From positions 8,673 to 72,672 of the forward strand of contig JBDZUM010000003.1 in assembly GCA_040255215.1 (NCBI GenBank): a DNA stretch of 64,000 bases. The letters run 5' to 3'. Shown one piece after another: positions 4,789 through 29,890 of this stretch. The stretch comes from Rhodospirillaceae bacterium (GTDB lineage: Bacteria; Pseudomonadota; Alphaproteobacteria; Reyranellales; JAQSWP01). The notes beneath the pieces were generated by a model that had not been told where the DNA came from, did no database searches, and was given only the letters and a program-made list of their open reading frames with translations. How positions within the stretch are numbered: position 1 is the stretch's first letter; the number at the start of each line of letters is the position of its first letter. Both the position numbers and the translations under genes were made by a program.

Positions 4789-4825
4789 TGCGTTTGCACA
4801 GCGATCACCGCAAGTCGGTATGCGG

Positions 4826-5791
4826 TTATGCTGCTTGCCGCGCGTGTTCGCAGCGGTGAATTTCGACCGTGACGTGGGAGAGCTGCGGCAGCTCGCGGAG
4901 CCTCGCTTTGTAGTGGCCGGGTTCTTGGGGGCGATCAGATATGACCGATACGATCACCGCCATATGGCCGGGGCCGATCCGCCACAGATGCAGATCTGAA
5001 ACCCGATCCCCATCATGTTCGAGTGTATGGCGGATCTGCTCCGACAGAGCGGTGTCCGGCATCGTGTCGAGCAGAACCGCCCCCGCGTCCCGAAGCAGTC
5101 CCCATGACCAACGGGCAATAACGACGCCTCCCACAATCCCCATGAGCGGGTCCATCCAGAGCCAGCCGTAAAACCGCCCGCCGAGCAGTCCAGCGATCGC
5201 CAGAACAGAGGTCAGCGCATCGGTGAGGACATGGAAATAGGCGGAACGCAGATTATGATCCTGATGGCCATGCGCATGCGCGTGTGGGTGACCGTCCTGC
5301 CGACCATGGTCATGGTGCTGATGATCGTGGTGACCGCCGTCGTGGAGCAGCCACGCGCTCACCAGATTGACGATCAGTCCCAAAACAGCCACGGCAATGG
5401 CCTCATTGAAGCGAATAGGGATAGGCGCGGTGAGGCGGAGCACGGACTCGAACCCGATCAACAGGGCGATAACTGCCAAGATGACGGCGCTTGAATATCC
5501 GGCCAGCTCTCCGAGCTTGCCGGTTCCGAATGTGAAGCGCTCGTCGTGAGCGTTGCGGCGTGCGTAGAGATAGGCGACAGCCGCAATCGTAAGCGCCCCG
5601 GCATGGGTCGCCATGTGAAAACCGTCGGCCAGCAGCGCCATCGACCCGAACATGGCTCCGGCGATGATCTCTCCGAACATCATCACAGCCGTCAGGCCGA
5701 TGACGATCCAGGTCCGCCGCTCGTTGCGGGCATGATCCGCACCAAGGAAAACATGATCGTGTTGCCAGGACTCGACGGAATCGGAGTGCAT
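4826..5791 (-). CDS. dmeF: Cation diffusion facilitator, DmeF-type Co(II)/Ni(II) efflux transporter
   Basis: N-terminal SWQHDHVFLG, six TM segments, and a His-rich loop HDGGHHDHQHHDHGRQDGHPHAHAHGHQDH. Confidence 0.85.
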   Translation of the reverse strand: MHSDSVESWQHDHVFLGADHARNERRTWIVIGLTAVMMFGEIIAGAMFGSMALLADGFHMATHAGALTIAAVAYLYARRNAHDERFTFGTGKLGELAGYSSAVILAVIALLIGFESVLRLTAPIPIRFNEAIAVAVLGLIVNLVSAWLLHDGGHHDHQHHDHGRQDGHPHAHAHGHQDHNLRSAYFHVLTDALTSVLAIAGLLGGRFYGWLWMDPLMGIVGGVVIARWSWGLLRDAGAVLLDTMPDTALSEQIRHTLEHDGDRVSDLHLWRIGPGHMAVIVSVISDRPQEPGHYKARLRELPQLSHVTVEIHRCEHARQAA

Positions 5792-6747: not shown

Positions 6748-8829
6748 ATGGCAACCGCCAATCCCAAGATCGTCCTGAGCCGGTCCCAGGACATTCCCTT
6801 CAACAAGCTGGTGCTGTCCCAGGCGAACGTCCGCCGGGTGAAGGCCGGCATCTCGGTCGAGGACCTGGCCGAGGATATCGCCCGGCGCACGCTCCTGCAG
6901 AGCTTGAGCGTGCGGCCGGTACTGAACGCTGAGGGCGTCGCGACCGGCATGTACGAGGTTCCGGCCGGCGGCCGGCGCTTCCGTGCGCTCGAACTGCTCG
7001 TGAAGCAGAAGCGCATGGCCAAGACCCAGCCCGTGCCGTGCGTCGTGCGCGAAGGCGGGACGCCCGAGGAGGACAGCCTGGCCGAGAACGTCCAGCGCGT
7101 CGCGCTCCATCCGCTCGACCAGTTCCGGGCCTTCCAGACCCTTCGCGACTCCGGCCTGGGTGAGGACGAGATCGCCGCCCGTTTCTTCGTCAGCCCCAGC
7201 GTCGTGAAGCAGCGCCTGAAGCTCGCATCGGTCTCGCCGAAGCTCCTCGACATCTATGCCGGCGACGAGATGACGCTCGAGCAGCTCATGGCCTTCACCG
7301 TCACCAATGACCATGACCGGCAGGAGCAGGTGTGGGAGCAGCTTGCCCGCTCCTACAACAAGGAGCCCTATTACATCCGCCGCCAACTTACCGAAGGCGC
7401 CATCCGTGCCTCCGACAAGCGGGCGCAATTCGTTGGCATCGAGGTCTACGAGGCGGCCGGTGGCGCCGTCATGCGCGATCTCTTCCAGCAGGACGATGGC
7501 GGCTGGCTGCAGGATCCGGCACTGCTCGACCGGCTCGTCGTCGAGAAGCTGACCAAAGAGGCGGAGGCGCTCCGCGGCGAGGGCTGGAAATGGATCGAGG
7601 TCGCGGCGGAGTTTCCCTACGGCCATACCGCCGGTCTCCGCCGCCTTGCCGGGGAGACGGCATCGCCTACCGACGAGGAGCAGGCGACCCACGACGCGCT
7701 GCGCGCCGAGTACAACAAGCTGGAGGAGACCTACGCGGAGGTCGAAGAACTCCCCGACGAGGTCGACCAGCGTCTCGGCGAGATCGAGACAGCGCTGGAG
7801 GCGTTCGACGATCGCCCTGTGATCTACGATCCCGCCGACATTGCCCGTGCCGGCGCCTTCGTCAGCATTGATGGCGACGGCGATCTGCGCATCGAGCGCG
7901 GCTATGTCCGTCCCGAGGATGAAGCGCCGGCCGAGCCGGACGCCGATGGCGACGCGCCCGAAGGTTCCGAGGACGACGGCGATGTCCAGCGCACGGTGGT
8001 CACCATCGGCGGCAACGGATCGTCGGCGAGTGCCGAGACCGCCGAGGAGGAAGATGGCATCAAGCCGCTGCCCGACCGTCTGGTCACCGAGCTCACCGCT
8101 CATCGCACGCTGGCGCTGCGCGACGCGCTGGCGAACGATCCCGACACCGCCTTCGTCGCGGTTCTTCATGCGCTCTGTCTCAACGCCTTCTATCGCTATG
8201 CGTCTGAGACCTGCCTGGAGATCGCGGCGAAGAGCGCGAGCTTCGGCACGCAGGCGCCGGGGCTCAACGACAGTGCGTCGGCCAAGGCGATCGAGGGCCG
8301 GCACGCGCAATGGGCCGGACAATTGCCGAAGGACGCCAGTGACCTCTGGAACGCGCTCATCGCCTTCGACGGCGACAGCCGCGCATCGCTGTTCGCGCAC
8401 TGCGCGTCGCTTTCGGTCAACGCGGTCCATGAGCCGTGGAACCGCAACCCGCGCCGCATCGTCCATGCGGGACGGGTCGCCCGAGCCGTCGGTCTCGACA
8501 TGGTCGCGGCCGGTTGGACGCCGACCGTCGACAACTATCTCGGCCGCGTCACCAAGGCACGCATCCTCGAAGCCGTGCGCGAGGCCAAGGGCGAAGCCTC
8601 GGCCCAGCTCATCGACCACCTCAAGAAGCCGGACATGGCGAAGGAGGCCGAGCGCCTGCTCGCCGGATCGGGGTGGCTGCCCGAGCCGCTTCGCCTGCCG
8701 GACGCCGAGACGGCTGTCGACGAACCGGCCACGACCGAGAATCTACCGGCGTTCCTCGATGACGACGAAGGCGCCTCCGTGGACTCCGATCCGAAAGAGC
8801 CGCAGCCGCCCGCCATCGCGGCAGAATGA
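6748..8829 (+). CDS. ParB/Srx N-terminal-domain protein (large ICE ParB-like protein)
   Basis: ParB box YEVPAGGRRFRALELL. 693 aa with an acidic central linker. Position after ardC is typical of this ICE backbone. Confidence 0.85.
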   Translation: MATANPKIVLSRSQDIPFNKLVLSQANVRRVKAGISVEDLAEDIARRTLLQSLSVRPVLNAEGVATGMYEVPAGGRRFRALELLVKQKRMAKTQPVPCVVREGGTPEEDSLAENVQRVALHPLDQFRAFQTLRDSGLGEDEIAARFFVSPSVVKQRLKLASVSPKLLDIYAGDEMTLEQLMAFTVTNDHDRQEQVWEQLARSYNKEPYYIRRQLTEGAIRASDKRAQFVGIEVYEAAGGAVMRDLFQQDDGGWLQDPALLDRLVVEKLTKEAEALRGEGWKWIEVAAEFPYGHTAGLRRLAGETASPTDEEQATHDALRAEYNKLEETYAEVEELPDEVDQRLGEIETALEAFDDRPVIYDPADIARAGAFVSIDGDGDLRIERGYVRPEDEAPAEPDADGDAPEGSEDDGDVQRTVVTIGGNGSSASAETAEEEDGIKPLPDRLVTELTAHRTLALRDALANDPDTAFVAVLHALCLNAFYRYASETCLEIAAKSASFGTQAPGLNDSASAKAIEGRHAQWAGQLPKDASDLWNALIAFDGDSRASLFAHCASLSVNAVHEPWNRNPRRIVHAGRVARAVGLDMVAAGWTPTVDNYLGRVTKARILEAVREAKGEASAQLIDHLKKPDMAKEAERLLAGSGWLPEPLRLPDAETAVDEPATTENLPAFLDDDEGASVDSDPKEPQPPAIAAE

Positions 8830-8936: not shown

Positions 8937-9473
8937 ATGGACTGGTACACCTCCTGCTCCTACGAGCCCGATCGAAAGCGTCGCTTCCATACCGTCGCCC
9001 GGGCGCGGCTTCGTTGCCTCGCCGCGGAACTCGGCTTTTCGCCCGCATCGTTCGATCTGCGCTCGAACCAGGGCGGGATCGCCGTGTCCGGCGAGATCAC
9101 GCTCCATCATGAGCGCGTCTATGTGCAGGTCTGCCAGCCGGCGACCCGTGCCGACACCGGCATCCTCATCCGCAGTTGCGAAGGCCGGCGCGACTATACG
9201 GGCGGATGCAACAACTTCGCGCCGCTGCGGCTCCTTGATGACATTCCGGCGCTCGCCGAGCGGGTCCGCGCGGTGATCGCGGCCAACGGCGGCCGCGCCC
9301 ACGCAGCATGTGAGGGGGAGGACAATCGGGACGGGCGAGCCGGGTCGGGCCGAGAGAGAGCCCGCCGGCCGTCCCGCAACCCGCATCAGGAGGTCAATCA
9401 TGACCGACACCACATCGGCCCCCACTGTCAATCCGGACTGGGAATCCTGGCAGGCTCAGGCGGGAGAACGTGA
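8937..9473 (+). CDS. Conserved ICE-backbone hypothetical protein
   Basis: Good codon bias and a Shine-Dalgarno sequence AGGAGA. The 3' end runs through class-1 copy C and overlaps the next gene by 74 nt, so the true stop or extent is uncertain. Confidence 0.5.
   Translation: MDWYTSCSYEPDRKRRFHTVARARLRCLAAELGFSPASFDLRSNQGGIAVSGEITLHHERVYVQVCQPATRADTGILIRSCEGRRDYTGGCNNFAPLRLLDDIPALAERVRAVIAANGGRAHAACEGEDNRDGRAGSGRERARRPSRNPHQEVNHDRHHIGPHCQSGLGILAGSGGRT
9311..9399 (+). repeat. Class-1 conserved structured leader, copy C
   Basis: tgaggggGAggacaatcGGGACGGgcgagccgggtcgggccGAGAGAGAGcccgccggCCGTCCCgcaacccgcatcAGGAGGtcaatcATG. Outer stem 9328-9334 / 9369-9375. Confidence 0.55.
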
Positions 9474-10323: not shown

Positions 10324-11088
10324 ATGGCCGACTATCATTCACCGACCGTGGTGCAGCCGACGATTCCCGATCGCGACATGACGCCGCTCGAACGCCTGCT
10401 GCTCTCGCACATCCTCGATTGCGAGCCGGACGGCGACGGGTTCTATTTCTACAGCGAAACCGGCCCGAGCGACGGCATCGAGCTGCCGCTCGACGAACTC
10501 CGCACGGCGCTCGCGGCATCCGACGGCGTTCCGAGTACCGCCCATGACTACGTCATCGAGCGGCTGGGCCCCGCCGGCCCGGACGATACGCATTTCGAGA
10601 TCGACCTTAGCGGAACGTCGTGGGAGTTCATCCTCCAGGACATCGTCCGCCGGTCGCGGACCCTCGATCACATCACCGTCGTCTCGGCGTTCACCTGCAC
10701 CAAGATGCGCCCCGACGGTTTCGGAGGGATGGCGGTGCTGATCAGCGCCGACGCCATCAAGGGCAAATCTACCCACGATATCCTGGAAGACTTTCTCGCC
10801 GAAGGCGCCGAAGACGATCCGATGCGCTCTGTCGCTTGCGGCGCAAGATCGCATGTGCTGTTGGCGCTCGATGAACCGTCGGTAAAGCAAGAGGTCCGAG
10901 TGGTCATCGAAAGCGATCCCGCGTTCGCGGCCTTGGCACCGGAGGCGGTGACGGACGCCGATATCCGCTCAGCCTGTATCGCGGTCGCCGAACATGCCGA
11001 CCTGGCGGAGGAACAGGGCGCCGCCCGCTTCCGCGCCGCCCTCCGCGCCATTCGCGAGGCCGAGCGGCGATGCGCGCAGATCAACTGA
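10324..11088 (+). CDS. Conserved ICE-backbone hypothetical protein
   Basis: MADYHSPTVVQPTIPDRDMTPLERLLLSHILDCEPDGDGFYFYSETGP... Start chosen at the ATG following the hairpin and Shine-Dalgarno sequence. The upstream part of ORF 9895 is overlap noise. Confidence 0.6.
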   Translation: MADYHSPTVVQPTIPDRDMTPLERLLLSHILDCEPDGDGFYFYSETGPSDGIELPLDELRTALAASDGVPSTAHDYVIERLGPAGPDDTHFEIDLSGTSWEFILQDIVRRSRTLDHITVVSAFTCTKMRPDGFGGMAVLISADAIKGKSTHDILEDFLAEGAEDDPMRSVACGARSHVLLALDEPSVKQEVRVVIESDPAFAALAPEAVTDADIRSACIAVAEHADLAEEQGAARFRAALRAIREAERRCAQIN

Positions 11089-11114
11089 CTCTCCCACATC
11101 CGATCTCGCACAGA

Positions 11115-11138
11115 GAGCCCGGCCATCGCGCCGGGCCT
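11115..11138 (+). repeat. Class-2 intercistronic hairpin, copy H
   Basis: GCCCGGC-catcgc-GCCGGGC (11117-11136), then cTTCGCcgtTCAGGAGgCttgca-ATG (11160). Confidence 0.55.
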
Positions 11139-11159
11139 TCGCCGTTCAGGAGGCTTGCA

Positions 11160-11405
11160 ATGAGTATCCCCGACCACGCCCGCACCAACTTCCAGACCCT
11201 TCTACGCGCCGCGGCGGCCGGCGACCTGGCCCTTGTCGAATGCGCCGACGCGGCCACCGGCGATCCGCGCTACGTCATCTGCGCGGTTGGTCGCGACAAC
11301 GGCGATTACGTGCTGACGCCCTTCGGCCATCTGGCGCCGGCTAGCCCTTACGACGCCTACATCCCGCCAACCGATGATGCGGCGCCGCTCCCCGGGTCCG
11401 GTTGA
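11160..11405 (+). CDS. Small conserved ICE-backbone hypothetical protein
   Basis: MSIPDHARTNFQTLLRAAAAGDLALVECADAATGDPRYVICAVGRDNGDYVLTPFGHL. Confidence 0.55.
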   Translation: MSIPDHARTNFQTLLRAAAAGDLALVECADAATGDPRYVICAVGRDNGDYVLTPFGHLAPASPYDAYIPPTDDAAPLPGSG

Positions 11406-15866: not shown

Positions 15867-16919
15867 ATGTCCAGCACCATGTCCAGCCAAGCCACCGAGC
15901 TGGCGCGGCGTCTCGCGCGCGATGCCGAAGTCGTCTGCCGCCACTATCTTCCCAACGGTCGCCGCCACGGCCGCTACTGGCTGGTGGGCGATGTTCGGAA
16001 CACCCCCGGCCGCAGCCTCTATGTCCGTCTCACGGGACCGGACTCCGGCCCCGGCGCCGCCGGCAAATGGACCGACGCCGCCACCGGCGAGCACGGCGAT
16101 CTCCTCGACCTGATCGCCCTCAACCGCGGGCTCGACGCCTTCCGCGACGTGCTCGACGACGCGCGCCGCTTCCTCTGCCTGCCGCGTTCCGAGCCTGCGC
16201 ATCCGACCCGCGAACCGCCGCTGCCGGCCGGATCGCCCGAGGCGGCCCGCCGTCTGTTTCGCGCTGGCCGGCCCGTCGCCGGCACCCAGGCCGAAGCCTA
16301 TTTCCGCGCGCGCGGCATCACAGCACGGCTCGATTGGCCATCGCTGCGCTTCCATCCGGCGCTCTGGTACCGGTCGGACCGCGATGCTGCCCGCGAATCC
16401 TGGCCGGGGCTGCTCGCCGCCGTGACCGACGCGGACGGCCGGATCACCGGCGTCCATCGCACCTGGCTCGACCGGCAGCGTCCCGAGAAGGCCCCGCTCG
16501 CCGATCCGCGCCGTGCGCTCGGCCAACTGCTGGGCAACGGCGTGCGCTTCGGCCGCGTGGCCGACGTGCTCGCCGCCGGCGAGGGCATCGAGACCATGCT
16601 CGCCCTCAAATCGGTGCTGCCCGACCTGCCGATGATCGCCGCGCTCTCGGCCAACCATCTCGCCGCCCTCGATCTCGTCCCGATGCTCGCCCGGCTCTAT
16701 GTCGCACTGGACCGCGATGCCGCCGGCCGAATGGCGGCGGAACGGCTGCATGCGCGCGGATGCGACGCCGGCATCGAGATCCGCGACCTTATGCCGGCCA
16801 GGAGCGATTTCAACGTCGATCTGCGGCGCCTCGGCCCGGATGCCATGCTCACCCGGCTGGCGGACCAGCTCGCTCCGGCCGATGCCCTGCGGTTCCTGCG
16901 CCGTCTCGACGCCGCCTGA
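15867..16919 (+). CDS. Toprim-domain protein (primase-like, ICE backbone)
   Basis: Toprim signatures AAGEGIETMLAL and YVALDRDAAG. Confidence 0.75.
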   Translation: MSSTMSSQATELARRLARDAEVVCRHYLPNGRRHGRYWLVGDVRNTPGRSLYVRLTGPDSGPGAAGKWTDAATGEHGDLLDLIALNRGLDAFRDVLDDARRFLCLPRSEPAHPTREPPLPAGSPEAARRLFRAGRPVAGTQAEAYFRARGITARLDWPSLRFHPALWYRSDRDAARESWPGLLAAVTDADGRITGVHRTWLDRQRPEKAPLADPRRALGQLLGNGVRFGRVADVLAAGEGIETMLALKSVLPDLPMIAALSANHLAALDLVPMLARLYVALDRDAAGRMAAERLHARGCDAGIEIRDLMPARSDFNVDLRRLGPDAMLTRLADQLAPADALRFLRRLDAA

Positions 16920-16967
16920 CCGGAAGGCCGAGCACGGCATCTCTCGCGGTTCGGTGTCGGACCGGAA

Positions 16968-17219
16968 GGGGACGGGGGAGCCGTGCGGCGGATCTTCCGG
17001 GCCGGTCAGGGGGCCGCGCCTGCGGCCTTCCCGAGCGGCGATCTGCCAGGGCCGGTCCCGGTCCGGCAATGGCGTCCGGCGGCTATTTTCCGCCGCCGGG
17101 CGGGAAGACCGCCCGGCTTTGCATCGCGAAACAAAATAGCCGCCTCCCGCCATCCTCCGCATGCGCTCCGGCCCCTTGCCGGCAGGCCGGCGGCGGGGTG
17201 CGGGCCCGGCTCCGTCCCC
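16968..17219 (+). other. About 250-nt highly structured GC-rich intergenic element (expanded class-1 variant)
   Basis: Closing stem GGGGACGG..AGCCG (16968-16983) / CGGCTCCGTCCCC (17207-17219). Perfect 12-bp stem GGCGGCTATTTT (17078-17089) / AAAATAGCCGCC (17133-17144) encloses the hairpin CCGGGCGG-gaaga-CCGCCCGG (17096-17116). Confidence 0.55.
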
Positions 17220-17279
17220 GGCGGGCGATCGCCGTGAAGGCCGCGATGGGCGCGGCCAGACCGGCAACAGGAGCCCGCC

Positions 17280-18236
17280 ATGACGCACGATCCGATGCCC
17301 TTCCTCATTCCCGACACCGAGCCCGCCGACGAGCTGCACACCGCCTCGCCCACCGCGCATCTGCTCGACGAGCTGGCGCTCTACGGCCATCGGCCCGGCC
17401 GGGACGAGCCCGATCCGCGTCCGCTGCCCGAGGCGGATATCGTCCGCGCCGAGCTCGGCGCGATCGTCGACGGCTTCGCCGCGATGTTGACCGACACGCG
17501 GCTCGAGGACGATCTCGACGACCTGCTCTGGTCCTTCGTCAACTTGTTCCACCGCAAGATCGACCGCATCGAGCGCGATCTCGACACCAACGAGCAGGCG
17601 CAGCGCCGCTCGCAGCTCGAGCAGAACGGCTCCGAGGTCCGCTCGGTCGAGCTCGAGCGCCTCATCGATCAGGGCCTCGGCCTGATCGAGCGCCGCAACG
17701 CCTTCGAGTTCTGCCGCGACCATGCCGCCGAGCACTACGAGGCGGTCACCGGCTCGCTGTGGCGGCCCCGCTCGGGCTCGATGGTCAACCATCGCGCGCT
17801 CACCTCCGCGATGATCGACAGCCGCGAGTTCATCGCCGCCCAGCGCCGCGCCGAGGCGCAGCTGCTCGTGCCCACGGGCAGCCGCATCGCCTTCACCGGC
17901 GGCTCCGACTTCAACGATCACCAGCGCATCTGGGCCGCGCTCGACAAGGTCCACGCGAAGCATCCCGACATGGTGCTGCTACACGGTGGCAGCCCGCGTG
18001 GCGCCGAGCGCATCGCCGCCTGCTGGGCCGACAACCGCAAGGTCGTCCAGGTCGCCTTCAAGCCCGACTGGAACCGCCACCGCAACGCCGCGCCCTTCAA
18101 GCGCAACGACGAGCTGCTCGACGTCCTGCCGATCGGGGTCATGGTCTTCCCCGGCACCGGCATTCAGGAGAACCTCGCCGACAAGGCCAGGAAGCTCGGC
18201 ATCCCGGTCTGGAAGTTCGGCAAAGGCGGCGGGTGA
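17280..18236 (+). CDS. DUF2493-domain protein with about 190-aa N-terminal extension
   Basis: C-terminal MVLLHGGSPRGAERIAACWADNRKVVQVAFKPDWNRHRNAAPFKRNDELL. Confidence 0.75.
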   Translation: MTHDPMPFLIPDTEPADELHTASPTAHLLDELALYGHRPGRDEPDPRPLPEADIVRAELGAIVDGFAAMLTDTRLEDDLDDLLWSFVNLFHRKIDRIERDLDTNEQAQRRSQLEQNGSEVRSVELERLIDQGLGLIERRNAFEFCRDHAAEHYEAVTGSLWRPRSGSMVNHRALTSAMIDSREFIAAQRRAEAQLLVPTGSRIAFTGGSDFNDHQRIWAALDKVHAKHPDMVLLHGGSPRGAERIAACWADNRKVVQVAFKPDWNRHRNAAPFKRNDELLDVLPIGVMVFPGTGIQENLADKARKLGIPVWKFGKGGG

Positions 18237-18844: not shown

Positions 18845-20974
18845 TCAGCTCCGCAGCATGCGCAGGCCCGAGGCGATGACGAGGAACTCGCTCACCTCGT
18901 GGGCCACCACCACGATCGGCAAGGAGAAGGCGCCAGCCATGGCGCCGACGATCAGCGCGCCGATGACGACGGCGGACAGCGCGAGGTTTTGCTTGACGAC
19001 GGTTTGCGTGCGCTGCGCATGCCTCAGCGCATAGACGAGCTTCTCCAGGTCGTCCGCCATCAACGCCACGTCCGCCGTCTCCAAGGCGACATCGGTGCCG
19101 GCGGCGCCCATGGCGACCCCGACCGTCGCTTCTGCAAGCGCCGGTGCGTCGTTGACGCCGTCGCCCACCATTGCGACGTGGCCGCGCTCTTCCGCAAGGG
19201 CGCGGATCTTCGCGACCTTGTCCTCCGGCTTGAGCGCGGCGAAAACCTCGTCGATGCCGGCGTCCTTGGCGATGGCTTGGGCCGTGCGCGGGTTGTCGCC
19301 CGTCAGCATGACGATGCTGCGGATGGCGGCTCGGTGCAGCGCCGCGATGGCCTGTCGGGCGTTCGGCCGGAGCGTGTCGCGCAGGGCGAGCAGTCCCCAG
19401 GCCCTCCGGTCGTCGCCGACGATGATGACCGTCTTGCCGTCGTCCTGGAGCCGCGCGATCTCGCCCTCGAGGCTCTCGAGCGGAATGCTGAGCCGGCTTT
19501 CGAACAGCGCCGGGCTGCCGATATAGAGGCGGCGCCCGTCCACGGATGCTTCGGCGCCGACGCCGGTCAAGGCGCGGAATCCGCTTACGTCAGGGACGGC
19601 GAGATCGGCTTCACGGGCGCGGCGCACGATCGCGCGGGCAAGCGGATGCTCGCTGTGGCGCTCGACGGCCGCAGCCATCGCGAGCAGCGCGTCCGCGTCC
19701 GCCGGGCTTCCGTCGCTCCGGCCTGCCAACAGGATATCGGTCACCTGAGGCTGGCCGCTGGTGAGCGTCCCCGTCTTGTCGAGGGCGACGACACTCACCT
19801 TGGCGAGCTCCTCCACGTAGACGCCGCCCTTGACCAGCACGCCGTTGCGGGCCGCCGTTCCCAATGCGGCGACCATGGTGATGGGGATGGAGATCACCAG
19901 CGCACACGGCGCGGCGGCGACGATGAACACCGTTGCCCGCATTACCGCGTCCTGCCAGGAGAGGCCAAGCGCGAGCGGGAGACCCAAGGCGGCGAGGATG
20001 CCGAGCCCGAGCACCGCCGGGCTGTACCAGGCGCCGAAGCGCTCGATAAAGCGCTGGCTCCGACCGCGTCGCTCCTGCGCTTCCTCGACCATCTGGATGA
20101 TGCGGGCCAGCGTGTTGTCGGCGTGCGTCCGGGTGGCGCGGACCTCGAGCGCCGCCTCGCCGTTGATGGTGCCCGCGAACACGGAGTCGCCCGGTTCCTT
20201 CTCGACAGGCACGCTCTCGCCTGTGACCGGTGCCTCGTTCACGCTCGATAGGCCGCTGAGGATCTCGCCGTCGGTCGGCATGGCCTGGCCGGGCCGCGCG
20301 ATGAATACGTCCCCGACGCGTAATTCCTCCACCGGAATCTCGACCTCCCTGCCGTCGCGGCGGACAAGGGCCACCTTCGGAGCGAGCGCCATAAGCGCTC
20401 TGATCGCCGAGCGCGTCTTCTCCTCGGTGTAGCCTTCGGCCGCCTCGGAGATCGAGTAGAGGAAGACCAGCATCGCGCCTTCCGCCGGCTGGCCCATGAT
20501 CGCCGCGACGACGGCGGCCACGGACATCAGCAGCTCGATGCCGATCTCCCGCTCGAAGACCAACTCCTCGATGGCCTCGCGTCCGAAGAAATAGCCGCCG
20601 ATGAGGATTGACACGATGTAGAGCGGCACCGCAGGGACCTCGGCTGCGGGCGCCATGCTTGCGAGCCAGCCGACAAGCAGGAGGAGGCCGGATGCGGCGG
20701 AGGTGAGGACCTTGGCGTTACGCCACGGCTTCGGCAGCGCCGGCAGCTCGCGCCCTTCCTCGGCCGGGAAGCCGGCCTCGCCGAGCTGCCGTCGAACCTC
20801 GGCCGCCGACGTCGCCGCGGGATTGAATCGGACCCGGACCTTGGCAGCCTTGGGATAGACGTCGATGTCCGCGATCCCCGGGCGGCCCGAGAGACCGCGC
20901 CGCAGCGCCGCCGCGTCGTGCTCGCAATCCAGATTGGCCACGCGCCACTCAGCGCTCTCGATCGTTCGGTTCAT
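18845..20974 (-). CDS. Heavy-metal P1B-type ATPase (Cd/Zn/Pb-like context), atypical APC transmembrane motif
   Basis: DKTGTLT, GDGVNDAP and TGES-type (VTGESVPV) motifs. TM6 reads AAAPCALV rather than CPC. The N-terminal HMA-like domain has a single Cys (NLDCEHD). ATG 20974 preferred over TTG 20992. Confidence 0.85.
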   Translation of the reverse strand: MNRTIESAEWRVANLDCEHDAAALRRGLSGRPGIADIDVYPKAAKVRVRFNPAATSAAEVRRQLGEAGFPAEEGRELPALPKPWRNAKVLTSAASGLLLLVGWLASMAPAAEVPAVPLYIVSILIGGYFFGREAIEELVFEREIGIELLMSVAAVVAAIMGQPAEGAMLVFLYSISEAAEGYTEEKTRSAIRALMALAPKVALVRRDGREVEIPVEELRVGDVFIARPGQAMPTDGEILSGLSSVNEAPVTGESVPVEKEPGDSVFAGTINGEAALEVRATRTHADNTLARIIQMVEEAQERRGRSQRFIERFGAWYSPAVLGLGILAALGLPLALGLSWQDAVMRATVFIVAAAPCALVISIPITMVAALGTAARNGVLVKGGVYVEELAKVSVVALDKTGTLTSGQPQVTDILLAGRSDGSPADADALLAMAAAVERHSEHPLARAIVRRAREADLAVPDVSGFRALTGVGAEASVDGRRLYIGSPALFESRLSIPLESLEGEIARLQDDGKTVIIVGDDRRAWGLLALRDTLRPNARQAIAALHRAAIRSIVMLTGDNPRTAQAIAKDAGIDEVFAALKPEDKVAKIRALAEERGHVAMVGDGVNDAPALAEATVGVAMGAAGTDVALETADVALMADDLEKLVYALRHAQRTQTVVKQNLALSAVVIGALIVGAMAGAFSLPIVVVAHEVSEFLVIASGLRMLRS

Positions 20975-20997
20975 CGTTGATCCCGTCTCCAAATTGG

Positions 20998-21029
20998 TTC
21001 ATCATATCATTAAGCGATGATACGATGAA
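20998..21029. promoter_or_regulatory. Candidate ArsR/SmtB operator in the divergent ATPase/ArsR intergenic region
   Basis: Imperfect 13-bp inverted repeat TTCATCATATCAT-taagcg-ATGATACGATGAA (12/13 matching). Confidence 0.6.
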
Positions 21030-21047
21030 TTGCCAGAGGCGAAATCC

Positions 21048-21437
21048 ATGCTTGTGATGGACCGCATCGAGGCCTACGGCCTCCAGGCCAAGCTGTTCCG
21101 CGGCCTCTCCGACGAGTCGCGGCTCGCGATTCTCGAGGCGCTGCGCGACGGCCCCCTGCCGGTGGGCCGAATCGTCGAGGTCACCGGCCTCTCCCAATCC
21201 AATACGTCGAACCACCTGCGGTGCTTGAGCGAATGCGGCCTCGTATCGGCCGAGCAGCAGGGCCGGTTCGTTTACTATCGCCTTGCCGACACGCGCATCG
21301 AGACCCTGCTTCGGCTCGCCGACGACTTGCTCGCGGAGGTAGGGCGCCGGATCTATGCGTGCACGAACTATCGTGGCTCGACGAAAACCGATACCCGGGC
21401 CACCGGCACGCCCGCGCAGCGCCAGGGAAGGCGGTGA
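21048..21437 (+). CDS. ArsR/SmtB-family metalloregulator
   Basis: LFRGLSDESRLAILEALRDGPLPVGRIVEVTGLSQSNTSNHLRCLSECGLV. Start could also be TTG 21030 or ATG 21057. Confidence 0.85.
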   Translation: MLVMDRIEAYGLQAKLFRGLSDESRLAILEALRDGPLPVGRIVEVTGLSQSNTSNHLRCLSECGLVSAEQQGRFVYYRLADTRIETLLRLADDLLAEVGRRIYACTNYRGSTKTDTRATGTPAQRQGRR

Positions 21438-22180: not shown

Positions 22181-22303
22181 GGCTCCCGGGCATCAAGGAA
22201 ATCATTTCGCGGCGTCCGGTCGGCTTGACGCAGATCAATGTCCGGCTCCGCCCAGGATGCGAGAAATCCGGCACGATGCAAAGCTACGTGAGCGGAGTGT
22301 GCG

Positions 22304-22546
22304 GTGAGCGCGACCGGCACGGAAGGGGCTGAGCAAGCGACGTACCACTTCTCGCGGGTACTGGTCGCGCCGTTCGAGGAAGCAATCGAACGTGTCATCG
22401 CGGCGCTTCAGCGCGAAGGCTTCGGTGTCCTGACCGACATCGACGTGGGCCTTCTTTTCGACGAAGCGGCCTGCGGTTCGCGACTAGATCGAATTTCCGA
22501 TTCAGGTCCAGAAATCGGTCAGTGCCGGTCGCATCTTTGCCTATGA
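22304..22546 (+). pseudogene. Truncated DUF302-type gene remnant
   Basis: The first ~48 aa (YHFSRVLVAPFEEAIERVIAALQREGFGVLTDIDV) look like a DUF302 N-terminus. Similarity then ends abruptly and the frame closes at 80 aa, against roughly 130 aa expected. Confidence 0.4.
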
Positions 22547-23361
22547 CCGCGGCGCCCGCGCGGGCGAGCCCGCGCGCCGGGCTCTCGTGAACCGAGCCGC
22601 CTCGCGGCGTCTCGGCCCTGGCGGGCTTCGATCCCTGGCGCAGCGCGCGCAGATGCCGGCTCCAAGATGCATCAAGGCGAGCCGCGATGGTCTCCCATCG
22701 GAGTCGTTCCGATAGATCGGCGTGCAGACCTTCAGCATGCCCCGCCGCGCTGATCCGCACGGCTTCGTGTCGGCTATTCGGTATCGCGTCCGCCGCGCGC
22801 AGTGAGCATGGATTGCGCCCGTCGTTGTGCCGATCATGAGGCCGGCACCGGTGCGCCTCAGCCCGATCATCGGCGCGTTCGCCATGAGAATCAGCCTGTC
22901 TCATCCCTCGACCGCATTGCCCTGGCAGCCCGTCACCGACCCCGCGCTGCCGTCCTGAGAGCCGTGTGGCGGAGCGTGGCGGACATCGTCGAAACGGGTC
23001 TGGAAGACGGCGGCGACACGGGTCAGGGGCGTCCGTTCCGGCACGGTCGAGACCGAGATGAAGACGCGCGGGTGCTTCGGCCAGGGTCTCCTTGCATGCT
23101 GAGATTCGCAGACCGTCCCTGCATGTCTCTCAAAGCGCTAGAGCCCGCGTCGCCCCTCTCCAACCTGTCCGGCGGAAGAATTTCCCCGGCCCGCAAGCGG
23201 GCCTCCTCGCGGACGCTTCGCTCCAAATTCTCCCGCCTCCCAGGTCCTCCACTCCGTTCCGGCCGCTTCGCTGTGCTCGCGGTGATGAGGGGTGCCTTGC
23301 GGTCTCTGAGCGCCGAGCCATCGCAGGGCGGTCCTGCGACTCAAGCGAAAGGAGACACATC

Positions 23362-23694
23362 ATGGCCATCACCCTCGGGACCTTCACCAAGCTCGACGAC
23401 GGCGTCTTCACGGGCACCCTCAAGACCCTCAACGTCACCGCCGCGCTCACCATCGTCCCTATCGACAAGATGTCCGAGAACGCACCCGACTATCGGGTCT
23501 ATGCCGGCCAGCGCTACGAGGTCGGCGCCGCCTGGAGCCAGGTCGCGAAGTCGAGCGGCGAGACCTACCTGAACCTCAAGATCGGGGCGCCCGAGTTCGG
23601 GCCGAACTGGGTCCGGGCCCGGCTGGTCAAGCTCGAAAACCCCAACGGGGACGGCGCCACCCACATCGCGCTGTGGGAACCGCGCGACCGATAA
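23362..23694 (+). CDS. DUF736-family protein (copy 1)
   Basis: MAITLGTFTKLDDGVFTGTLKTLNVTAALTIVPIDKMSENAPDYRVY. GGAGA Shine-Dalgarno sequence. Paralogue at 45756. Confidence 0.8.
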   Translation: MAITLGTFTKLDDGVFTGTLKTLNVTAALTIVPIDKMSENAPDYRVYAGQRYEVGAAWSQVAKSSGETYLNLKIGAPEFGPNWVRARLVKLENPNGDGATHIALWEPRDR

Positions 23695-23701
23695 TGCCCC
23701 A

Positions 23702-23740
23702 AGCCCCGTCGCGGATCGCCGCGGCGGGGCTTTCCTTCTG
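23702..23740 (+). terminator. Intrinsic terminator-like hairpin after DUF736 copy 1
   Basis: 13-bp stem AGCCCCGTCGCGG-atcg-CCGCGGCGGGGCT, followed by the T-rich run TTCCTTCTG. Confidence 0.55.
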
Positions 23741-23881
23741 CGTGTGATTTCGCACGCCCGCTCGAATTCGCGGGGGGCGCCTTTTCGAGCGTCCCGGAAC
23801 GCGCCCCATCGCGCCCATCCTCGCTTGGCGCGCGGCGACGTTCGCCGTCGCCGCCTGCACCGCAATCGAGGAGCGCCGAAG

Positions 23882-24154
23882 ATGGATGACGAGATCGTCC
23901 GGGCCGCCAATGCGAAGAAGGGCAGCCCGTTTCTGAACACCGACCAGGCCGCCCACTATGTCGGCCTGTCGCGCCGGACGCTCGAAAAGATGCGCACGGC
24001 CGGCGGCGGGCCGCGCTTTCGCAAGCATGGCCGCTACGTCCGCTATCACATCGACGACCTCGACGAATGGTCGGCCGAGCACGTCAAGACGTCGACCTCG
24101 GAGCCCGACCGTCCGCGTCCCGCCCGGCCCGAGAACGGCAGGGCACGGCAATGA
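23882..24154 (+). CDS. rdfS: Excisionase-type HTH protein, RdfS-like recombination directionality factor
   Basis: FLNTDQAAHYVGLSRRTLEKMRTAGGGPRFRKHGRYVRYHIDDLDEW. First gene of an rdfS-traF-transglycosylase arrangement as in ICEMlSymR7A. Confidence 0.7.
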   Translation: MDDEIVRAANAKKGSPFLNTDQAAHYVGLSRRTLEKMRTAGGGPRFRKHGRYVRYHIDDLDEWSAEHVKTSTSEPDRPRPARPENGRARQ

Positions 24155-25936: not shown

Positions 25937-26291
25937 CCACACCGATCGCTTCGGGAGCGGCGTCGCCACGGCGTCGCTCCCATCATGTTAGCGGACGACT
26001 CCGCCTGGTCCATGGGCATCGCCTTGAGCCGAGACCAGGCAAGAGATCGTAGGTAAGCGCGGGACGGACGGAGAGTAGATCGAAAGTCGCGTAAGGCAAG
26101 ATTAAAGGGGTGTCTCGCATGAGCCACTATCTCTTTGTCTGCACATCGTTATTCAGAGAGATTCTGATTGCGGGCTTCGAGACTCCCTCGCGTAAGCCCT
26201 TGATTCTCCGCATGGCGATGGAGACGCCTTGCGGCCCGCGCGCGGGCGCTGCTTCCTCATGTTGTCGGACACTTTCGACTGTCGCTGAGGC

Positions 26292-28286
26292 ATGGTCATG
26301 ACACGGGACGACGAGTTCGAGCCGAAGCTCGGGAAGATCCGCTCCCGTGGCAGCAAACGCGGCCGAAAATATCTGCACCGGGTGCTGCAGGCGACGATGC
26401 TTGCCGGCGGGCGCCTGCGGATCGGACCGTCAGCACGCAAAGCAAAGTTCCACGGCAGCCAGATCGGTCGCGGCGCCGGCATCGGCCGCATGCTCGCCAC
26501 GCGTGATCGCTATGCGGCGTTCCGCAGCCGCCGTGTCGTCGTCAAAGCCCGCATCGTCAAACTCGCCGGCAACGGCATCAAGGGCGCGCGTGCGCATCTG
26601 CGCTATATCCAGCGCGACGGCGTGACCCGCGACGGCCACCCGGGGGAGCTCTATTCAGCCGAGCAGGATCGCGCCGACGGCAAGACGCTCATCGAGCGCT
26701 CTACAGGCGACCGCCATCAGTTCCGCTTCATCGTCGCGCCCGAGGACGGAGCCGAATACGACGACCTGAGGCCGTTCGTGCGCCGCCTGATGACGCAGAT
26801 GGAGGACGACCTCGGTACAAAGCTCGAATGGGTCGCGGTCGATCACTACAACACCGGCCATCCGCATAGCCATATCATCCTCCGCGGCAAGGACGACCAG
26901 GGGCAGGACCTGGTCATTGCACGCGAGTACATCACCAAGGGATTGCGGGAGCGCGCCGCCGAACTGGTCACGCTGGACCTCGGGCCGCGCACCGATCTGG
27001 AGATCGAGAACCGCCTGCGCAACGAGGTCGAACAGGAGCGGCTCACCAGCATCGACCGGCGCCTGCTGCGCGACCGGCATGGGGAGGGGCTGGTCTGGTC
27101 CGCGGACAGGGACGCCTTCCAGCAGACCTTGCGGGCCGGCCGCCTGCAGAAGCTGAAACATCTGGGACTGGCCGAGGAAGTGCGGCCGGGCGAGTGGCGC
27201 TTGGCGGGCGACCTCGAGAACACGCTCAAGCGCATGGGCGAGCGCGGCGATGTCATCAGGACGATGCAGCGCGAGATGGCAGCGAAGGGTGTAACGCGCG
27301 CCGCCGCCGATTACGTGATCTTCGACCCGGCCGTGAAGGACAGCCGCCCGATCACCGGCCGGCTGGTCGCGCGGGGCCTGTCCGACGAGATCAACGACCG
27401 CCACTACCTGATCGTCGACGCTCTCGACGGCCGCACCCACTATGTCGACATCGGCAGGGGGGAAGCGACCGAGCCCATGCCCGAAGGCGCCATCGTGCGC
27501 ATCGATCCGAAGCGCGCCGAGCCCCGACAGGTCGATCGCACGGTCTCCGAAATCGCGGCTGCCAATGGCGGGCGGTATGACGTCGATATCCACCTTCGTC
27601 ACGACCCGTCCGCCAGCGCCAGTTTCGCCGAAACCCACGTGCGCCGGCTGGAGGCGATCCGCCGCATCACCGGCGGTGTCGAGCGCGAGGCCGACGGAAC
27701 GTGGGTGATTGCCTCCGACCATTTGGAGCGAGCGGCGGCGTTCGAGCGCCGTCAGGCACAGGCTATTCCCGTGGTGGTGCAAACGCTGTCGCCATTGCCC
27801 CTCGATCGCCAGATTGGCGCCGAGGGTGCAACTTGGCTCGACTGCGAGCTGGTCGCGGAGATCCCGGAACCCGTACGCGACGAGGGTTTCGGGCGGGAGG
27901 TGCGTGCGGCGCAGGTGCGGCGGCGGCAGTGGCTTATCGCGCAGGAGCTGGCCCGTGAGGAACAGGACCGGATCGTCTATCGCGCCAATCTCCTCGGCAT
28001 CCTGCGACGGCGCGAACTAAATCGCGTCGCCGGTCAGCTATCGGGTGAACTGGGGCTGGGCTACGTCGAGACAAAGTCGGGGGAGAAGGTCGACGGCATC
28101 TATCGCCGGCATGTTGATCTGGCGCGCGGCCGCTTCGCCGTCATTGAGAAAGCCCGCGAGTTCACACTGGTACCGTGGCGGCCCGTGCTGGAGCGCCATC
28201 TGGGCAAGCAGGTCTCCGGCCTCGTTCGCGGCGACAGCATTTCCTGGACCGTCGGGCGCCAGCGGAGCGGGCCGACCGTCTCGTAA
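26292..28286 (+). CDS. Conjugative relaxase (RlxS-like, relaxase plus DUF3363-type C-terminal region)
   Basis: N-terminal MTRDDEFEPKLGKIRSRGSKRGRKYLHRV. Histidine triad HYNTGHPHSHIILRG. True start may be ATG 26298. Confidence 0.85.
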   Translation: MVMTRDDEFEPKLGKIRSRGSKRGRKYLHRVLQATMLAGGRLRIGPSARKAKFHGSQIGRGAGIGRMLATRDRYAAFRSRRVVVKARIVKLAGNGIKGARAHLRYIQRDGVTRDGHPGELYSAEQDRADGKTLIERSTGDRHQFRFIVAPEDGAEYDDLRPFVRRLMTQMEDDLGTKLEWVAVDHYNTGHPHSHIILRGKDDQGQDLVIAREYITKGLRERAAELVTLDLGPRTDLEIENRLRNEVEQERLTSIDRRLLRDRHGEGLVWSADRDAFQQTLRAGRLQKLKHLGLAEEVRPGEWRLAGDLENTLKRMGERGDVIRTMQREMAAKGVTRAAADYVIFDPAVKDSRPITGRLVARGLSDEINDRHYLIVDALDGRTHYVDIGRGEATEPMPEGAIVRIDPKRAEPRQVDRTVSEIAAANGGRYDVDIHLRHDPSASASFAETHVRRLEAIRRITGGVEREADGTWVIASDHLERAAAFERRQAQAIPVVVQTLSPLPLDRQIGAEGATWLDCELVAEIPEPVRDEGFGREVRAAQVRRRQWLIAQELAREEQDRIVYRANLLGILRRRELNRVAGQLSGELGLGYVETKSGEKVDGIYRRHVDLARGRFAVIEKAREFTLVPWRPVLERHLGKQVSGLVRGDSISWTVGRQRSGPTVS

Positions 28287-28555: not shown

Positions 28556-28981
28556 GTGGTGGCGGAACTGAACATTGTCGGGCACGGGATCGATCTGGTG
28601 GATATCGCCGAGATGCGGCGATGGATCGATGATCCGCGCGATCCATTGATTCCGCGCTGCTTCGTTCAGGAGGAGTTAGATGAGGTGGGCGGAGGACCCG
28701 ACCGGATCGAGCGCTTAGCCGGCCGGTTCGCCGCGAAGGAAGCTGTCTTGAAGGCGCTGGGAACTGGGTTTGGGGCTGGCGTCGCTTTTTCTGACGTGAT
28801 CATCCATCGCGCGGCGGGCGGACCGCCGCAGGTCCGGCTTACGGGCGGTGCCGCAAAGGCTGCGGCGGAACTAGGCATTGCTGAATGGCGGCTGAGCATC
28901 AGCCACACCAGCGCAATGGCCATGGCGAGCGCCATCGCGATCGGCGGCGCGCTTCACGACGAAGGGTCTGATCGCGCCTGA
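28556..28981 (+). CDS. acpS: Holo-ACP synthase (AcpS-type 4'-phosphopantetheinyl transferase), accessory copy
   Basis: GHGIDLVDIAEM, RFAAKEAVLKALG and RLSISHTSAMAMA motifs; 141 aa. GTG start. 3' end overlaps the convergent MazG-like gene by 28 nt. Confidence 0.8.
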   Translation: MVAELNIVGHGIDLVDIAEMRRWIDDPRDPLIPRCFVQEELDEVGGGPDRIERLAGRFAAKEAVLKALGTGFGAGVAFSDVIIHRAAGGPPQVRLTGGAAKAAAELGIAEWRLSISHTSAMAMASAIAIGGALHDEGSDRA

Positions 28982-29874
28982 TCGGCAGCAGCCTGACCGA
29001 GGTAGTCGATGCGGCGATGGTCGAGATCCACCGCGATCCGACCGCCGCGCGCGGCGAGGACAGCGCGCCATACCTTGAAGCCCTGCAGGATCGCCTGCTC
29101 CCACTCGCCCGTCGTGCACTGCTTGACCTCCAGGTGTGAGGTCATGTCCTTGATCGTGCGCAGGAGTTGGAAGTCGAGCACGCTGACACCCTCGAGCATG
29201 TGATGGCGTCGGGCATAGTCGAAAGCGAGCGCGGCCACGCCCTCCTCGATCACCGCAGCGCGTCCGCCATCTTCGACCTCGTCGAGGAGCGGGCGGCTCT
29301 TGCGCTTGCGGCGCAGCAGCGCGCGCGTGATCGGCGACCAGCCCAGCACGGCGGCATAAGCGAGATGGAAGACGTCGTGGAACCGATAGCCATCCGGATC
29401 ATAGGCGTTGTCGGTCAGCTCGGCGCCGAACGGCTTGCCGTTGATCAGCACGCGGACGTGCTGACGATCATCGCCTTCGACGTCGAGCAATTCGACCTCG
29501 AACCGGCGCGGCAGGCGCTCGCCTTCGGGAAGCGTCGCATCGAAACACAGCGGCTCGGTGCGCTCAGTCGCCCAGCGCGCCATCACCTTGGCGAGGTTGG
29601 CGGCCGCGATCTCATCGAGAGTCAGGTCGAACTTGCTCGCGACGTTCGCAATGTACCAGAGTAGGTCGCCAAGCTCCTCGGACACGCGCTCTTTGAAGAG
29701 CCGGTGCGCTTCGCCATCGCGCAGATGCTTCTTGTATTCGCTCAGAAGCTGACCGGTTTCGCCGGCGAGACCCAGCATTGGGACGATGAGGGAAAGGCTA
29801 TCATCCGCACCCTCGCCCGCCGGGACGCGATCGGTGCGCAGGGCCTCTTTCTGATATTGGTCGAAATCCATCAT
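28954..29874 (-). CDS. MazG-like NTP pyrophosphohydrolase with about 200-aa unknown C-terminal domain
   Basis: FDQYQKEALRT, LGLAGETGQLLSEYKK and EELGDLLWYIANVA (all-alpha NTP-PPase signatures). ATG 29874 follows an AAGGAG Shine-Dalgarno sequence; GTG 29889 is the alternative start. Confidence 0.75.
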   Translation of the reverse strand: MMDFDQYQKEALRTDRVPAGEGADDSLSLIVPMLGLAGETGQLLSEYKKHLRDGEAHRLFKERVSEELGDLLWYIANVASKFDLTLDEIAAANLAKVMARWATERTEPLCFDATLPEGERLPRRFEVELLDVEGDDRQHVRVLINGKPFGAELTDNAYDPDGYRFHDVFHLAYAAVLGWSPITRALLRRKRKSRPLLDEVEDGGRAAVIEEGVAALAFDYARRHHMLEGVSVLDFQLLRTIKDMTSHLEVKQCTTGEWEQAILQGFKVWRAVLAARGGRIAVDLDHRRIDYLGQAAADQARSDPSS

Positions 29875-29890
29875 CGTCTCCTTCGGCACT

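Follow-up and report, generated by a model that had tools for sequence, protein, structure and literature searches.

What is the role of the 360-nt spacer (positions 16920–17279) that separates a toprim gene from a DUF2493 gene in an integrative and conjugative element (ICE) of an alphaproteobacterium? The spacer belongs to a stretch of 64 000 nt (hereafter the window) from contig JBDZUM010000003.1 of a Rhodospirillaceae bacterium (assembly GCA_040255215.1), the backbone of which is of the ICEMlSymR7A type. A first-pass annotation, made from the sequence of the window, described the spacer as GC-rich, non-coding and folded into a multi-stem element, and listed a single-stranded DNA (ssDNA) promoter, a non-coding RNA and a primosome or priming site as candidate functions. 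The spacer is real in this sense, with no coding signal and strong folding. It contains a Y-shaped core element of ∼250 nt (E1; residues 17008–17262) whose conservation, with compensatory changes, extends to many alphaproteobacterial conjugative elements, and a diverged paralogue of the same architecture (E2; 23107–23338) precedes the DUF736 gene of the same window. We refer to copies before DUF2493 as type 1 and to copies before DUF736 as type 2. Among the functions listed we favor the ssDNA promoter, with a non-coding RNA as the main rival and priming only as a possible second role. Specifically, we propose, at a little short of an even chance, that E1 and E2 are promoter or initiation hairpins of the transferred strand and form a new class, similar in kind to the ssDNA promoter Frpo of plasmid F but unrelated to it in sequence.

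The spacer is flanked on its 5′ side by a DUF7146 and Toprim_3 gene (15867–16919, + strand; assigned by domain) and on its 3′ side by a DUF2493/YAcAr gene of the SLOG family (17280–18236, + strand; Pfam PF10686, E = 6.5e-33). In 64 aligned spacers, occupancy and conservation are low over the 5′ part (16920–17007) and conservation is strong from ∼17012 to 17257. The multi-stem structure and the inner helices of the first description stand; its extent does not, as the conserved element spans 17008–17262 and not 16920–17279. Covariance model R1 matches E1 in the + orientation with 168.1 bits (E = 1.6e-39), and the − strand, the complement of the genes, is the predicted folding strand. E1 stops 17 nt short of the DUF2493 start codon (ATG at 17280), and a Shine–Dalgarno sequence, AGGAG (17269–17273), completes the + strand segment 17269–17282. 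The core has a GC fraction of 0.76. Against dinucleotide shuffles, the whole spacer folds as RNA with z scores of −4.72 (+ strand) and −3.49 (− strand), and the core folds as DNA with z scores of −5.16 (+) and −5.74 (−). The DNA fold of the − strand has an energy of −97.9 kcal/mol over 255 nt, and a sliding scan of the first 34 kb with DNA parameters places E1 as the most stable 260-nt window on both strands.

No coding signal was found in E1: column variability shows no three-base periodicity (the observed value was matched or exceeded in 510 of 2000 permutations), core lengths modulo 3 are scattered (22, 12 and 29) and insertions and deletions do not preserve the frame. Small open reading frames (ORFs) across the element, such as 16983–17237 (84 amino acids), are ruled out as genes by the non-periodic conservation and the frame-breaking indels; a test for stop-free frames is uninformative at this GC content. 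A search of the whole window against Rfam 15 at the gathering threshold gave no matches, and at E values up to 10 the region 16800–17400 gave three sub-threshold chance matches, all outside the core. No description of the element was found in the literature on DUF2493, DUF736 and ssDNA promoters in ICEs or alphaproteobacteria.

RNAalifold applied to an alignment of 35 sequences produces one coherent structure on either strand, and the minimum-energy folds computed for individual distant homologues match this consensus. The closing stem is imperfect, contains ∼55 bp formed by an L arm (17012–17068) and an R arm (17199–17257), and is topped by a three-way junction. The L arm contributes to helices 1–8 and contains the nearly invariant blocks GGCCTTC, GGCGATC and GCAA; the CAA at 17067–17069 is invariant. 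The R arm includes the nearly invariant segment GAAGGCCGCGATGGGCGCGGCC (17236–17257), which is also able to form a local hairpin. Conservation is higher in the R arm than in its L partner, and the L-arm GGCGATC is kept even where its R-arm partner varies, as would be expected if one arm were read as sequence and the other transcribed. Branch B/C/D (17069–17153) consists of helix B (17069–17073 with 17149–17153), the A/T-rich helix C (17078–17089 with 17133–17144) and the apical hairpin D (17095–17117), which is variable in length and is followed by the conserved unpaired segment TTTGCATCGCGAAAC (17118–17132). The conserved unpaired junction strand CCTCCGCATGCGCTCCGG (17154–17171) has the consensus CGCC(R)TCCTCCGCTGCGCTCCGG, which is common to both paralogue types, and reads as the purine-rich GGAGCGCAGCGGAGGA on the − strand. 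Branch E (17172–17198) is a second hairpin that is variable in both length and sequence.

Two of the inner helices had been picked out previously. The 12-bp stem GGCGGCTATTTT/AAAATAGCCGCC corresponds to helix C and the hairpin GCCGGGCGG-gaaga-CCGCCCGGC to hairpin D; both are present and carry compensatory changes in homologues (for example CTATTTT/AAAATAG versus CTTTCTT/AAGAAAG). The outer parts of that model fared differently. Its closing stem was drawn between GGGGACGG (16968–16975) and CCGTCCCC (17212). Both sequences are present, yet the window shows no enrichment of the motif, with seven matches versus 5.0 expected (24 of 100 shuffles reach seven), and the stem itself is not conserved. 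When the 90 nt upstream of the core were compared with the equivalent 3′ segment in 70 homologues, the longest stretch of complementarity came to 5.14 nt, versus 5.26 nt in shuffled sequences, and a length of 8 was reached only in the window, in its close relative L001 and in L018. The proposed outer stem is thus lineage-specific or due to chance, and the consensus fold instead pairs 17212–17219 with 17044–17055. A further helix between TGCGGCGGAT (16984–16993), which like the GGGGACGG arm lies in the 5′ part of the spacer, and ATCCTCCGCA is not conserved in homologues. The idea of a class-1 leader with an insert of ∼220 nt is accordingly unsupported, since the conserved closing stem is a different one.

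The fold is maintained by covariation. R1 contains 239 positions and 74 pairs and was evaluated on 96 matches, in which standard pairs occupy 86.8% of the pair cells versus 73.4 ± 0.3% in shuffles and 38–47% when the partners are slid. Changes on both sides are seen in 60 of the 74 pairs, and compensatory cells number 840 versus 290 in shuffles; none of 500 shuffles reaches any of these measures. Helices 9, 10 and 12 of branch B/C/D are 91–96% paired with many two-sided changes, and helix 13 of branch E is 93% paired with all four of its four pairs changing on both sides. Helix 11 is only 64% paired and is not supported. The Rhodobacterales-type type-1 copies (L032, L033, L041, L049, L056, L058 and L059; about 4088–4287) are shorter (176–200 nt) and have a short hairpin in place of helices C and D, so that what is essential apparently comes down to a core of basal stem, junction strand and branch E.

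Conservation in related elements, which had been suggested as a check on the first description, is extensive. A blastn comparison with plasmids matched 92 alphaproteobacterial records, with the similarity limited to window positions 17001–17290. Relatives of the toprim protein were confirmed in 545 cases in genome contigs, and 80 of these loci were examined. Nearly all have a spacer of 230–400 nt before a DUF2493 gene, and 75 of the 80 carry a type-1 copy (76 copies counting the window). Both copies are present in about 35 loci, the second ∼2.1 kb after the first and just before DUF736, and plasmids pAtK224b and pMC4 carry the same E1/E2 pair in the same orientation. In the window, E2 (− strand) is matched by R1 over the full model length with 41.9 bits (E = 6.8e-9) and is barely detectable by sequence alone (nhmmer E = 0.24), which indicates that structure is what E2 conserves. 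Its DNA fold has an energy of −65.4 kcal/mol on the − strand (z = −4.85) versus −54.7 kcal/mol on the + strand (z = −3.59). E2 ends 23 nt before the start codon of the DUF736 gene (msi110 family; 23362–23694, + strand; Pfam PF05284); a mechanically called ORF (23092–23694, 200 amino acids) over-extends this gene across E2. The position relative to the downstream gene is nearly fixed: type-1 copies end 12–23 nt (median 16) before DUF2493 and type-2 copies end 18–24 nt (median 21) before DUF736, and this gap holds a Shine–Dalgarno sequence only.

The first-pass annotation had linked the spacer to the neighboring primase-like toprim gene, and this link does not survive the comparison. Toprim-bearing loci without DUF2493 (L010, L045, L053 and L071) lack the element, L025 retains it together with only the first 30 codons of DUF2493, and E2 lies far from toprim; the element therefore travels with its downstream genes. 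A third copy was not found by nhmmer with both types in the window or in two plasmids. The intergenic region 8950–9305 was considered as a further copy and is not significant (z = −1.24), and the folded regions 11040–11320, 4730–5060, 22290–22550 and 2640–2880 are not homologous to the element. In pMC4 (L082), a weak R1 match (38065–38242; 17 bits, E = 0.004) that ends 16 nt before a small hypothetical gene between two DUF736 genes may be a third, more diverged family member. The 66-residue ‘hypothetical protein’ annotated in pAtK224b (L081; 19920–20120) lies largely inside the element (19949–20193) and is probably a spurious gene call.

Several features distinguish the two strands. The gene-complement strand folds better in 68 of 70 type-1 copies with RNA parameters (mean difference 13.2 kcal/mol) and in 63 of 70 with DNA parameters (mean 7.1 kcal/mol); the corresponding counts for type 2 are 28 and 26 of 29. 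Shuffles show that base composition explains ∼5 of 11 kcal/mol of the strand difference. In type-1 consensus pairs, + strand A·C (equivalent to − strand G·T) occurs 309 times versus 115 for + strand G·U, and some pairs run C–G/U·G/U–A on the − strand with the wobble as the majority state (e.g. 64/443 and 168/276). Of 60 apical triloops, 43 are C(TNC)G on the + strand, i.e. C(GNA)G on the − strand, and none reads C(GNA)G on the + strand; DNA minihairpins of the C-GNA-G type are unusually stable. The conserved unpaired positions of the + strand are composed of 35.5% C, 23.7% T, 26.2% G and 14.6% A, which is atypical for structured RNA. The loop types, wobble counts and unpaired-base composition all point to the minus strand as the folding strand. 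As a positive control, three ssDNA promoter regions of plasmid F fold 6–11 kcal/mol better on the transferred strand, a bias of the same sign and size as that of the element.

The gene order suggests that this strand is also the one transferred. The backbone runs entirely on the + strand from ardC to the relaxase gene. In order, it comprises ardC (3826), a ParB-like gene (6748), DUF6878 (9310), a Strawberry-notch helicase gene (11430), toprim, E1–DUF2493, metal-resistance cargo, E2–DUF736, traF (24067), msi107/SLT (24687) and rlxS (26292–28286, + strand; Pfam DUF3363/Relaxase), after which come traG and trbE/trbL of the trb type IV secretion cluster. In ICEMlSymR7A, the origin of transfer (oriT) lies after the rdfS–traF–msi107 operon and before rlxS (PMC11963761), and by analogy oriT is expected here in the intergenic region 25937–26291. 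This layout is that of F, with leading genes pointing toward oriT followed by tra genes. The ParB-like protein (6748–8829) aligns end to end with the ParB-like protein of the F leading region (L083, 7539–9497; 28% identity, E = 1e-53); a preprint describes YfjB, which may be the same F protein, as a conserved, zygotically induced protein of the F leading region. Provided that the relaxase gene is the last to enter, as it is in well-studied systems, the minus strand would be the transferred strand and the template for these genes. The element itself was also considered as oriT and rejected. An oriT would be a single site next to the relaxase gene, with an inverted repeat and a nick site; the element is present in two copies, 9 and 3 kb upstream of rlxS and each directly in front of a start codon, and the published oriT of the ICEMlSymR7A family lies just before rlxS. 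Position, copy number and the absence of a promoter were likewise the grounds for dismissing integron attC-like sites and an antisense RNA. The stretch between DUF736 and traF (23700–24030), where rdfS and its promoter are expected, contains 25-nt inverted arms (23770–23794 with 23976–24000) and ranks second in minus-strand DNA stability among the windows of the 34-kb scan (z about −3.7); it is not homologous to the element.

In the proposed mechanism, the strand complementary to the genes would enter the recipient as ssDNA and each element on it would fold into a long imperfect hairpin with a three-way junction. The basal stem would thereby rebuild duplex DNA, with a −35-like TTGCCG at its junction end and internal loops approximately where the −10 element and the start site would lie. 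RNA polymerase would start on the rebuilt duplex and copy the incoming strand into DUF2493 mRNA from E1 and DUF736 mRNA from E2, and transcription of both genes would precede second-strand synthesis. The same RNA may prime that synthesis, as proposed for Frpo of plasmid F. The R arm would serve as the template arm and as the start of the 5′ untranslated region, which is predicted to begin near GAAGGCCGCG with a start site at ∼17230–17240, inside or just after the arm. We further suggest, with somewhat greater reserve, that the family is one of ssDNA structures and not of RNAs: a Y-fold kept by compensatory evolution across the Alphaproteobacteria, acting as an early-expression promoter, possibly also as a primer site, and recruiting RNA polymerase by way of a pre-opened stem that has no canonical −10 element. 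Inspection by eye of the minus-strand L arm identifies TTGCCG (complement of 17064–17069; its TTG is invariant), a spacing of 17 nt and GCAGAT (complement of 17041–17046), and the −10-like hexamer, a weak one, reads TCCGAT in most homologues and CCAGAT in type 2. Internal loops lie at the −10-like site and again a few bases beyond it and are followed by the nearly invariant GAAGGCCGCGATGGGCGCGG. The scan for intrinsic terminators around E1 and E2 gave none, and the aligned spacers contain no conserved promoter 5′ of the element.

Plasmid F carries two homologous sequences, Frpo1 and Frpo2, before leading-region genes, where the ssDNA rebuilds a promoter that gives early, transient expression (PMC9849209). 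Further sequence-unrelated hairpin classes in pESBL and F were found by folding energy and confirmed by 5′ rapid amplification of cDNA ends (RACE) (PMC12672017 and a bioRxiv preprint). The threshold of the pESBL screen, −75 kcal/mol per 300 nt (PMC12672017), is passed by E1 (−98 kcal/mol in 260 nt). The element resembles the ‘class 1’ hairpins (Frpo1 and Frpo2 of F; ssi1–3 of ColIb-P9/pESBL) in being a non-coding hairpin of ∼250–300 nt before genes that point toward oriT, in having at least two homologous copies per element, in forming very stable ssDNA and in folding better on the template strand of the downstream genes. In size, stability, copy number, position, orientation and strand bias, E1 and E2 fit the Frpo kind. 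The neighboring genes also overlap in kind (ParB-like, anti-restriction, methylase or helicase); homology between F and the ICE is shown for the ParB-like protein only, the anti-restriction and methylase genes being annotated or assigned as such on both sides. The element differs from class 1 in its host, an alphaproteobacterial ICE or plasmid with 66% GC, in having a three-way junction where class 1 has a simple long stem–loop, and in its lack of a canonical −10 box. Frpo is backed by in vitro transcription, deletions and 5′ RACE, whereas a promoter role of the element is proposed from sequence.

The class 2/3 ssDNA promoters, known from pESBL and F (Frpo3; located before ardB/klcA and M.EcoGIX), are sequence-unrelated hairpins found by folding energy alone, which like the element are GC-rich with a purine-rich transferred strand. 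Their −35/−10 boxes are recognizable and their start sites mapped, unlike those of the element family, which draws its support from deep covariation across many genera. The distance from the hairpin base to the start codon is ∼36 nt for the Frpo3 region of F, as folded here, compared with 12–24 nt for the element. Single-strand origins of the ssoA type, found in rolling-circle plasmids and ICEBs1, are strand-specific folded ssDNAs of 150–300 nt that are recognized by RNA polymerase and have RS-B and, in a terminal loop, CS-6 (TAGCGT) as hallmarks. Neither RS-B nor CS-6 was seen in E1 by eye, and single-strand origins, unlike the element, are not positioned before start codons. In size, covariation and intergenic position the element is comparable to Rfam cis-regulatory and small-RNA families, from which it differs in that the strand evidence points away from a sense RNA.

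The main rival, which we regard as rather unlikely, is that the + strand acts as RNA: a structured 5′ leader in the DUF2493 and DUF736 mRNAs that controls translation or stability, for example through an unpaired CCUCC anti-Shine–Dalgarno-like motif or by binding an ICE protein, or a processed small RNA. A leader would account for the location on the gene strand at a fixed short distance before a Shine–Dalgarno sequence and start codon in more than 100 copies, and the covariation, being strand-symmetric, fits RNA equally well. The + strand RNA fold of the window copy is strong (z = −4.72), the conserved unpaired CGCCGUCCUCCGCU contains CCUCC, and in the local hairpin of the invariant 3′ segment C/T variation gives + strand G–C or G·U (34 and 25 sequences, respectively). 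The junction CCUCC is, however, ∼55 bp of stem away from the Shine–Dalgarno sequence, and the + strand folds worse than its complement in nearly every copy (the 68 of 70 and 28 of 29 given above). Some covarying pairs have + strand A·C as the majority state, the unpaired positions are rich in C and poor in A, an unusual composition for structured RNA, and the + strand apical loops are almost devoid of GNRA or UNCG tetraloops, the GNA triloops being on the other strand. No conserved promoter defines a 5′ end for such a leader, and Rfam contains no match. A double-stranded role (a palindrome bound by a regulator, or a cruciform) or a minus-strand antisense RNA controlling both genes appears very improbable. 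The element is palindrome-like, with R1 also matching the minus strand at the same places (29–53 bits), and minus-strand folding is favored; but a double-stranded role predicts no strand asymmetry, and the compensatory changes in the inner branches B to E and the variable lengths of D and E favor pairing within one strand over a twofold operator. For an antisense RNA, a promoter would have to lie within two unrelated coding regions, where none is conserved or detected, and the loops are too variable for kissing-loop control.

It is decidedly unlikely, in our estimate, that the element is solely an ssDNA priming site (a single-strand origin or single-strand initiation site) with no role in mRNA synthesis, at which the complementary strand of the transferred or rolling-circle DNA would be started by host RNA polymerase, host primase or the ICE toprim protein. 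The same minus-strand folding evidence applies to this explanation as to the ssDNA promoter, E1 adjoins the toprim gene, and ICEs such as ICEBs1 carry a single-strand origin. Frpo itself has been described as both a promoter and a source of primers (PMC9849209, PMC12672017). A priming site would nevertheless have no reason to end 12–24 nt before the start codons of two unrelated genes, and the element follows DUF2493 and not toprim, with E2 far from the toprim gene.

The ssDNA-promoter interpretation has to be weighed against a number of observations that do not favor it. The covariation counts derive from an alignment fitted to the model and from phylogenetically related sequences and are thus not counts of independent events. 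The two strands of the E1 copy in the window fold about equally well (E2 favors the minus strand by 10.7 kcal/mol), several pairs show + strand G·U, and the wobble asymmetry of ∼2.7 to 1 in type 1 falls to ∼1 to 1 in type 2 (84 versus 77). R1 gives no match at the Frpo1, Frpo2 and Frpo3 regions of F, with which there is no sequence homology. A linear scan around E1 and E2 found no sigma-70 −35/−10 pair of the E. coli type. The −10-like hexamers GCAGAT, TCCGAT and CCAGAT lack the key A at position −11, and the −35-like TTGCCG sits directly at the three-way junction. The nick site, nic, was not located by a search for ATCCTG-like motifs or by comparison with pAtK224b, in which the region before rlxS is too diverged, and the assignment of the transferred strand comes from gene layout alone.

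To our knowledge, ssDNA promoters are documented only in IncF and IncI plasmids of enterobacteria, where folding revealed them one by one. If the ssDNA-promoter reading is correct, E1 and E2 would be the first such class beyond enterobacterial plasmids and the first to be defined through covariation, a DNA structure supported by comparative sequence analysis and not by folding energy alone. This sequence-unrelated class would be present in the ICEMlSymR7A family, symbiosis islands included, and in related plasmids of Mesorhizobium, Bradyrhizobium, Agrobacterium, Methylocystis, Paracoccus, sphingomonads and others. Such a spread is backed by the 92 plasmid records similar to the spacer, by the neighboring toprim gene, which occurs in more than 545 genomes, and by the near-constant presence of the element after this gene in the 80 loci. 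DUF2493 and DUF736 would then be the first genes expressed on entry, which would offer a handle on two widespread proteins of unknown function. If the mRNA-leader explanation is correct instead, the element would be a new, large and widespread structured leader not yet represented in Rfam. Both possibilities are open to direct testing in R7A, a genetically tractable system, and the covariance model is able to annotate the element.

The gap between DUF2493 and the second element, which is only ∼0.9 kb in most loci, looks like an insertion hotspot. In the window it holds genes for a heavy-metal P-type ATPase and ArsR (18845–21437), and in pMC4 (L082, 21254–36009) mer/czc genes together with HEPN and Abi genes; in pAtK224b (L081, 22762–23273) merF lies just after DUF736. 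Cargo just after the relaxase gene of the window (28954–32082, − strand) encodes a MazG_C protein and a 5-hmdU DNA kinase helical-domain protein, which suggest a thymidine hypermodification module, unusual on an ICE. An AbiEii toxin gene preceded by an unassigned ORF of 269 amino acids (46247–48034) is located among cargo adjoining multicopper oxidase genes, and this ORF is probably the AbiEi partner.

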